Shown here piece by piece: positions 6,699 through 6,973 of a stretch of DNA of 8,303 nucleotides (position 1 is the first letter of the stretch; every line of letters starts with the position of its first letter). The notes under the pieces were generated by a model, which was not told the origin of the DNA, did not search any database, and saw nothing but the letters and a program-made list of their open reading frames with translations. The stretch comes from Escherichia coli (lineage in GTDB: Bacteria; Pseudomonadota; Gammaproteobacteria; Enterobacterales; Enterobacteriaceae), in the NCBI RefSeq assembly GCF_003334255.1, contig NZ_QOWU01000092.1. The stretch is one strand, 5' to 3'. The translations under genes and the position numbers were made by a program.

Positions 6699-6973
6699 TG
6701 TTTTTTGTCCACGCTTTTATATGTAAAGGTGATTTGCTTTTTCTGTATGCTCGTCCAATATAATAATTTTCAAACATATAAATCCGATTATTCTGAAAAT
6801 ATGTTTAAGACTTTTCAATCTTCTTAACTTTAGTGAGTTAAATTCTCTGTATATTTGACAGCTAGTTGGCTGATTTTAAATGCCTTATAACAATTGGCAA
6901 TATTCTTATTTGGCAATTATAAAAATAGCAACCAGACTTAATAAGTCAAACCAAACGCAATTAAGGAGTTAGT

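Follow-up and report, generated by a model that had tools for sequence, protein, structure and literature searches.

The direct repeat and palindrome of the ydeJ–ydeI spacer in Escherichia coli lie within a probable ydeI core promoter with an RcsB-box-like site

Introduction

The osmC gene is regulated by both sigma-S and Rcs, and the start sites and footprints of the osmC and bdm promoters have been published. The -10 element preferred by sigma-S has a consensus of about TCTATACTTAA, with C at -13, C at -8, and TAA at -6 to -4. The osmY and yjbJ genes are sigma-S-dependent. Regulators of the OmpR/PhoB type, such as PhoP and PmrA, have sites with a periodicity of 10–11 bp. YdeI is a periplasmic stress protein linked to antimicrobial-peptide resistance and persistent infection in Salmonella, where the gene is said, from the work of Pilonieta and colleagues in 2009, to be responsive to PhoPQ and PmrAB as well.

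The RcsB homodimer box is a 14-bp pseudo-palindrome, TN(G/A)GAN4TC(T/C)NA, and substituting the central base of a half-site impaired RcsB binding in gel-shift assays (PMC7913699). Salmonella ydeI is activated by the Rcs phosphorelay, as the study of Erickson & Detweiler 2006 is summarized in PMC7917084. In E. coli, a LolCDE inhibitor induces ydeI 28- to 66-fold (PMC5105897), and colicin M induces the gene as well (PMC3599342); both treatments induce genes of the Rcs regulon, too (PMC5105897; PMC3599342). An earlier note on this DNA had remarked that ydeI homologues of related species are induced by stress and envelope signals. Stationary phase also induces the gene (PMC3535384). Because Rcs raises sigma-S by way of RprA (PMC7917084), the induction of ydeI in E. 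coli could be indirect. The TetR-type regulator RcdA was found to bind the ydeI–ydeJ spacer by genomic SELEX and by footprinting (footprint data not shown), and it activates ydeI in one medium (PMC3535384).

Results

The window, that is, the whole stretch of 8,303 nucleotides that was analysed, carries the genes ydfI, ydfZ, rspR, ydfG, dcp, ydeJ, ydeI, and dgcZ in this order. Positions 6180–7400 are 100% identical to E. coli strain G1/2, and the ydeJ–ydeI spacer matches E. coli K-12 MG1655 base for base. The earlier note had described the spacer as an AT-rich divergent control region, and this was borne out: its GC content is 0.284, versus 0.491 in ydeJ and 0.476 in ydeI. It is a genuine divergent control region of an ordinary, known kind. 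The features discussed below are collected in Table 1.

Table 1. Features of the ydeJ–ydeI region, in window coordinates (strand ".", no orientation assigned).
Feature	Position	Strand	Basis or remark
ydeJ	6180–6698	-	CinA/PF02464 family, 172 aa
ydeJ–ydeI divergent intergenic spacer	6699–6973	.	275 bp, 28.4% GC
Probable decayed 5' remnant of a lost divergent 171-aa gene	6756–6824	-	Weak N-terminus trace
Second RcsB-like match, TCCGATTATTCTGA	6783–6796		Inside the 171-aa gene remnant (6756–6824)
Consensus TTGACA	6855–6860	+	No usable -10; unconserved outside E. coli
Conserved TGATTT motif	6871–6876	.	Conservation; ~20 nt upstream of the box
Promoter-like TTGCCA (6900 to 6895), 16 bp, TAAAAT (6878 to 6873)	6873–6900	-	10/12 to consensus
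Repeat copy 1, TTGGCAAT	6894–6901	+	Overlaps left half of the RcsB-box-like site; polymorphic in E. coli
RcsB-box-like 14-mer, TGGCAATATTCTTA	6895–6908	.	7/8 specified positions; -50 to -37 of the predicted start
Putative -35 hexamer, TTGGCA	6910–6915	+	Conservation and spacing; elsewhere TTGCCA, TTGTCA, or TTGTAA
Repeat copy 2, TTGGCAAT	6910–6917	+	First six bases form the putative -35; polymorphic (G6913T, giving TTGTCA)
Candidate promoter TTGACT (6949 to 6944), 16 bp, TGc-TATTTT (6930 to 6922)	6922–6949	-	Consensus scan
Conserved distal part of the 17-bp spacer, AATAGCAAC, ending with C at -13	6924–6932	+	Conservation
Putative -10 hexamer, CAGACT, then TAA (6939–6941)	6933–6938	+	Conservation
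Palindrome GACTTA-A-TAAGTC	6935–6947	.	Left arm coincides with the -10/discriminator; predicted start falls in the right arm
Predicted ydeI start, ~G6945	6943–6946	+	From the spacing to the -10
Shine-Dalgarno sequence AAGGAG, 5 nt before the ydeI ATG	6963–6968	+	Conserved as AAGGAG or GGAG
ydeI	6974–7366	+	BOF/YdeI family periplasmic OB-fold stress protein, 130 aa

A scan based on YdeI alignment, with one genome per species, yielded 80 loci from many Enterobacteriaceae genera. Three further loci were added by exact protein, and the upstream sequences were anchored on a short core. This core, C-CAG[A/G]CT-TA or a close variant, was present in 74 of 77 YdeI-family loci across many genera of the family. 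Its distance to the start codon is ~36–45 nt in most loci and reaches 78 nt in a few, and the core is kept even where the remaining upstream sequence differs. Among 41 sequence types, the hexamer has near-invariant A at position 2 (-11), C at position 5 (-8), and T at position 6 (-7). We read it as the -10 element, because these three near-invariant bases are the signature of a -10. The separation from the putative -35 (TTGGCA to CAGACT) is 17 bp, and the pair shows the features of a sigma-70-family promoter: hexamers 16–18 bp apart, A at -11, and T at -7. The predicted 5' UTR of ydeI is ~29 nt long and unstructured (fold z = +1.09). The earlier note had treated the stretch with the repeats and the palindrome as control DNA; this stretch makes up the functional core of the ydeI promoter.

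Only three of the six positions of the -10 agree with TATAAT, so a simple scan misses the ydeI promoter; indeed, the consensus scan gave no plus-strand promoter. Set against the sigma-S consensus given above, the element resembles the sigma-S-preferred form: C6932, C6937, and the TAA at 6939–6941 are present and conserved. This likeness is one of sequence. In the genome-wide table of Kim et al. 2012, neither ydeI nor ydeJ has a start, the part of this table that was examined for Klebsiella has no entry for the orthologue, and a phrase search of the open literature found no published description of a ydeI promoter.

Several other promoter readings were rejected. The consensus TTGACA, which the earlier note had pointed out as lacking a convincing -10, indeed has no acceptable -10 at 15–17 bp; the plus-strand scan was empty there and the motif is not conserved. 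A plus-strand combination of TTGGCA (6894–6899), 18 bp, and TATAAA (6918–6923) lacks T at -7 and is not conserved either. Reading the conserved TGATTT as a -10 of the minus strand (TAAAAT) does not work in several genera. A sigma-54 reading of TGGCA...TGGCA was discarded on inspection, the GG-to-GC spacing being unsuitable. For a sigma-E reading (GGAAT, N17, TCAAG), E. coli has no GGAAC-like -35.

The scan for regulator motifs that the earlier note had proposed gave a divided result. It brought out the RcsB-box-like 14-mer, and it left the PmrA box at chance level (see below). In E. coli, the 14-mer deviates from the consensus at C6898, where the central base of the left half-site should be G. 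It ends 1 nt before the TTGGCA -35 and 24 nt before the -10. A box scoring at least 7/8 at one fixed place, 0–1 nt upstream of the -35, occurs in 32 of 74 loci, a count that overstates the independent support because the loci are related by descent; the background of such matches is 18 in 21090 other positions (0.00085). The 36 loci with a box carry 21 distinct box sequences, which differ mostly at the unspecified positions: these hold 0.92 bits and the specified ones 1.43 bits. In an exact permutation test of this difference, 176 of 3003 permutations reached the observed value. The sequence TAAGACTnnTCnnG or a close relative adjoins the -35 on its upstream side in many genera, among them Enterobacter, several Citrobacter, Leclercia, Lelliottia, Silvania, Huaxiibacter, Pseudenterobacter, and Pseudocitrobacter. 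At 25 distant loci (Kosakonia, Phytobacter, Pseudescherichia, Franconibacter, and others), GA-N4-TC stands at the box place in 11; elsewhere it appears at only two other registers, in two loci each. Salmonella has only 4–5/8 at the box place. Over the whole window, RcsB-box matches with at most one mismatch are at chance frequency (7 found, 8.15 expected). Taken as a whole, the analysis suggests that Rcs-type control of the ydeI gene family is old and widespread in Enterobacteriaceae. We conclude that positions 6895–6950 are probably a ydeI core promoter of the usual RcsB-activated envelope-stress architecture, with a predicted start, putative RcsB binding, and presumptive sigma-factor usage.

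An envelope-stress response regulator is likely the best candidate for the activator of ydeI. Alternatively, the E. coli box could be a decayed relic that RcsB no longer binds, with the induction arising from Rcs through RprA to sigma-S, which would act at the sigma-S-type -10 of ydeI, plus activation by RcdA. The C in place of the central G of the left half-site fits this explanation, as changes of this kind impaired binding (PMC7913699), and so does the effect of Rcs on sigma-S through RprA (PMC7917084). The gene is stationary-phase-induced and RcdA-dependent in one medium (PMC3535384). Moreover, the LolCDE inhibitor co-induces osmY, yjbJ, and ygdI with ydeI, and ygdI is described as RpoS-induced in a table of the same paper (PMC5105897). 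However, every sampled E. coli variant (n = 5) retains the right half-site and the exact spacing. The Rcs-regulated osmC promoter has a box-like site of only 6/8 at an equal distance from its -10, and an RcsB heterodimer requires only one RcsB half-site (PMC7917084). We consider the relic explanation unlikely, if well short of negligible, and retain direct activation by RcsB as the preferred reading.

For the direct repeat, the earlier note had reported two copies of TTGGCAAT, and these are present with a start-to-start spacing of 16. An exact 8-mer repeat within 30 bp occurred in 19.8% of 2000 dinucleotide-preserving shuffles of the 275-bp spacer. The spacer was found in 4377 of 5426 complete E. 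coli genomes. The 65-mer 6886–6950, which spans both copies, was matched in 4371 E. coli genomes, and it is exactly K-12-like in only 1296 of these. Five variant strains were sampled. A6900G was found in all five and turns copy 1 into TTGGCAGT, G6913T in three, turning copy 2 into TTGTCAAT, and C6898T in one; positions 6914–6969 were invariant in all five. The A6900G change falls on an N position of the box, and G6913T falls on position 4 of the -35, both of them degenerate. Selection thus does not preserve the two copies as a repeat, and the adjoining downstream sequence stays constant. Where E. coli has copy 1, other genera show a left RcsB half-site, TAAGAC or TAGGAC. Copy 1 can be understood as a diverged left half of an RcsB-type box, because TGGCAATATTCTTA sits exactly at the box place.

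The two copies might still be read as an operator for a direct-repeat-binding regulator, e.g., PmrA/BasR or PhoP. The exact 8-mer repeat exists, and the reported PhoPQ/PmrAB response of Salmonella ydeI would agree with such an operator. Nevertheless, the repeat is at chance level, the identity of its copies is lost in most of the E. coli genomes with this region, and other genera do not conserve the place of copy 1. The 16-bp spacing is unlike the 10–11-bp periodicity of OmpR/PhoB-type sites. For the PmrA/BasR box YTTAAK-N5-YTTAAK, the spacer contains only one CTTAAT (6937–6942); matches in the spacer require 2–3 mismatches, and their number (69 found versus 61 expected) is not above chance. 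A direct-repeat operator is thus very improbable. The earlier note's proposal of the repeats as candidate operator or activator sites is not supported, and phylogenetic footprinting, which it had suggested, showed that the repeat is not conserved in orthologous Enterobacteriaceae loci.

The palindrome reported by the earlier note is likewise present. A palindrome with 6-nt arms and a loop of at most 3 nt was obtained in 46% of 2000 dinucleotide-preserving shuffles of the spacer. Across Enterobacteriaceae, the perfect palindrome is kept in only one of 41 sequence types: the left arm coincides with the invariant -10/discriminator, and substitutions accumulate in the right arm with no compensation. 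We also considered whether the palindrome acts as a hairpin in the ydeI leader RNA, with control over translation or stability. The isolated 13-mer does fold at -3.2 kcal/mol, better than its own shuffles. In context, however, the fold is no better than that of shuffles (z = -0.33), and the predicted transcript would lack most of the left arm. The substitutions in the right arm are not matched in the left arm, and an Rfam search gave no match. A leader hairpin is barely credible, and a structured 5' UTR or RNA element was rejected on the same grounds (no Rfam match, z = -0.33 in context and +1.09 for the leader, no covariation). The palindrome is best seen as a symmetry that arose by accident between the -10/discriminator and the region of the start. 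The direct repeat and the palindrome are chance features of the ydeI promoter and not regulatory units.

The consensus scan of the minus strand returned the candidate promoter at 6922–6949, which overlaps the ydeI promoter and has a predicted start near 6915, directed toward ydeJ. On this strand, AATAGCAAC reads as an extended -10, TGcTATTTT. A second promoter-like match on this strand begins with a TTGCCA that is the reverse complement of part of repeat copy 1 (Table 1). The conserved stretch 6922–6949 might mainly be a minus-strand promoter for the divergent operon. In E. coli this operon consists of ydeJ; in Enterobacter and Citrobacter, a 171-aa gene and a DUF421 gene belong to it along with ydeJ. 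Such a role is compatible with a ydeI promoter. The site matches the consensus at 9 of 12 positions and has an extended TG, which is better than the plus-strand promoter. The elements TTGAC[T/A/G], 16 bp, TGC, and TATT[T/C][T/C] are found in essentially all loci with a divergent upstream gene and are absent at loci with a co-directional one. A minus-strand promoter also accounts for the conserved AATAGCAAC and GTCAA, whereas the ydeI promoter model does not. On the other hand, most Enterobacter and Citrobacter loci have TATTCC as the -10 and so lack its all-important last T, and the table of Kim et al. 2012 lists no ydeJ start. Function and ancestry are inseparable in this conservation, because the pattern of presence and absence tracks the phylogeny. 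The plus-strand -10 is still needed, because the universally conserved CAGGCTTA sits in the spacer of the minus-strand promoter. The primacy of the minus-strand promoter is a tentative and somewhat doubtful reading; the site itself is a candidate divergent-operon promoter that overlaps the ydeI promoter.

The box is centred at about -43.5 for ydeI and would cover about +8 to +21 of the predicted divergent transcript. A one-site switch could be built on this geometry: RcsB would turn on ydeI and at the same time block the divergent transcription, be it of ydeJ or of the ancestral operon made up of the 171-aa gene, the DUF421 gene, and ydeJ; the overlapping promoters would be mutually exclusive for the polymerase. 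We regard such a switch as quite improbable.

The spacer itself appears to have a mixed origin. In Enterobacter and Citrobacter, two genes, encoding the 171-aa protein and the DUF421 protein, lie between ydeJ and ydeI, and the promoter region measures only ~130 bp. In E. coli, positions 6756–6824 gave a weak match to the N-terminus of the 171-aa protein (tblastn E = 0.11), and the nucleotide block 6779–6797 is common to E. coli, Salmonella, and the coding sequence of C. sedlakii. Salmonella has a leftover 3' end of the DUF421 gene (E = 0.001). The E. coli segment is probably the decayed 5' end of the lost divergent 171-aa gene. Because such remnants occur in both E. coli and Salmonella, the AT-rich spacer is read as partly decayed coding DNA; outside the promoter, it would in part be a leftover from the loss of the two intervening genes.

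The AT-richness allows a further interpretation, in which the spacer is chiefly a silencing platform for nucleoid proteins, with putative H-NS countered by RcdA and the small motifs secondary. The GC content of 28.4% is in line with this, and RcdA binds the spacer, reportedly cooperatively, and activates ydeI in one medium (PMC3535384). Yet the spacer has no exact match to the RcdA box TTGTnnACA, which is often paired. One-mismatch matches in the window are at chance level (23 versus 27.5 expected), and the nearest one, at 6705–6713, is next to the ydeJ start and far from the ydeI promoter. Silencing also leaves the base-by-base conservation of 6895–6950 unexplained. As the main role of the spacer, it is possible but rather unlikely.

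Discussion

The preferred reading, an RcsB-activated ydeI core promoter, implies the following course of events. Outer-membrane or peptidoglycan stress would lead to phosphorylated RcsB, which would bind the box centred near -43.5 and recruit RNA polymerase to an otherwise weak ydeI promoter. In stationary phase, the sigma-S holoenzyme may use the same -10. The transcript would start near G6945 and carry a short unstructured leader with a strong ribosome-binding site.

The analysis supplies a concrete cis-regulatory map for ydeI. Its main value is negative: a conspicuous repeat and a conspicuous palindrome are not regulatory units, and the promoter is an ordinary one in a much-studied genome.

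Among the known systems, the RcdA regulon includes the ydeI–ydeJ spacer as a reported SELEX and footprint target, although the spacer has no exact RcdA box, and RcdA binding leaves the conserved block 6895–6950 unexplained. As in bidirectional or overlapping divergent promoters, promoter-like elements of opposite strands interdigitate here within ~55 bp. Bidirectional promoters with a shared, symmetric -10 region have reportedly been described by Warman and colleagues in 2021; unlike in that type, the predicted starts of the ydeI and ydeJ transcripts are ~30 bp apart.

Salmonella ydeI (omdA) is like its E. coli counterpart in having an identical -10 (CAGACT) and the same conserved spacer and start region. 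It differs in the box place (4–5/8) and in the -35, which is TTGTAA. The cis-element for Rcs control of Salmonella ydeI may therefore differ or lie elsewhere.

At osmC, a box-like site (TCGGAATATCCTGC) lies directly upstream of a weak -35 and a poor -10 (TAGTCT). An imperfect match to the RcsB box is not unusual at this Rcs-regulated promoter, as the osmC site reaches only 6/8. The start sites of osmC and bdm are published, whereas that of ydeI is predicted.

The rprA promoter, which is controlled by the RcsB homodimer, differs from that of ydeI in two respects. Its box matches the consensus at 8/8, and the annotated 5' end of the RNA gives its start; in ydeI, the box matches at 7/8, with the mismatch at the reportedly critical base. 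In their layout, the two promoters are alike. In each, a 14-bp pseudo-palindromic box sits immediately before the -35, and the distance from the box to the -10 is 23 nt in rprA and 24 nt in ydeI of E. coli K-12. The rprA box (TGAGACGAATCTGA) occupies -49 to -36 relative to the annotated RprA 5' end, and the ydeI box lies at about -50 to -37 of its predicted start.

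Conservation of the ydeI upstream region

The region 5' of ydeI was compared with loci from other strains and species. A set of distant loci (L052–L080) covered Kosakonia, Phytobacter, Buttiauxella, Siccibacter and other genera. In these loci, the YdeI-like gene is preceded by a co-directional gene of approximately 178 aa, the product of which looks like a GNAT-type acetyltransferase when judged by eye. TGC-CAGGCT-TA is the sole upstream element retained there, and its sequence reads as a putative extended −10 without a −35. At the position of the RcsB-box-like site, an AGA-N4-TC core is retained in about half of the loci.

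E. fergusonii (L088, 1330–1500) retains the ydeJ–ydeI pair, separated by just ~170 bp. Its −35 and −10 elements are TTGTAA and CAGGCT, respectively. The sequence 5' of the −35 is unrelated to that of E. coli, and a box-like sequence is absent from the expected place.

A TGATTT motif lies ~20 nt 5' of the box and is kept across E. coli, Enterobacter, Leclercia and Salmonella. Its assignment as a minus-strand −10 (TAAAAT) was rejected, because this reading breaks down in several genera.

Gene remnants and flanking features

In the E. coli spacer, the intergenic region between the divergent ydeJ and ydeI, there is a faint, probable remnant of a gene for a 171-aa protein. Enterobacter and Citrobacter carry this gene in divergent orientation relative to ydeI. 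In Salmonella (L086, 1096–1185), a remnant of the 3' end of a DUF421 gene adjoins ydeJ. The E. coli spacer and Salmonella share a common block, inside which a second RcsB-like match was found, agreeing with the consensus at 7 of the 8 specified positions.

Downstream, a 10-bp inverted repeat starts 12 nt past the ydeI stop codon. No T-run follows it, and it was absent from the output of the terminator scan. The genome-wide start-site table of Kim 2012 places the dgcZ (ydeH) start 27 nt 5' of the ATG; the same table has no entry for ydeI or ydeJ.

Coordinates of features in and around the ydeJ–ydeI spacer
Feature	Window position	Strand	Sequence
Probable remnant of 171-aa gene	6756–6824	−	
Block common to E. 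coli and Salmonella	6779–6797		TAAATCCGATTATTCTGAA
Second RcsB-like match	6783–6796		
TGATTT motif	6871–6876		TGATTT
Inverted repeat, first arm	7378–7387		CCTGATGGCC
Inverted repeat, second arm	7398–7407		GGCCATTAGG
dgcZ start site	7594		
dgcZ ATG	7621		

Gene loss and IS1 insertions within E. coli

Loss of ydeI and ydeJ (window 6180–7366) is frequent in E. coli, and the spacer is entirely missing from 1049 of the 5426 complete genomes. At locus L085, ydeJ is reduced to a stub of 81 nt, and all that is left of ydeI is a 90-nt 3' remnant. The same reduction of ydeJ to an 81-nt stub was seen in L083, where ydeI and its promoter are retained; this arrangement apparently occurs in ~820 of the complete genomes. 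At L084, an IS1 element occupies the expected position of ydeI.

Strain MLI105 (L094, 1940–2068) carries an IS1 insertion at the equivalent of window 6909/6910. The element sits directly 3' of the RcsB-box-like site and directly 5' of the −35 TTGGCA, thereby splitting the box from the core promoter. This insertion provides a natural test case for the model in which RcsB would activate ydeI from the box adjoining the −35.
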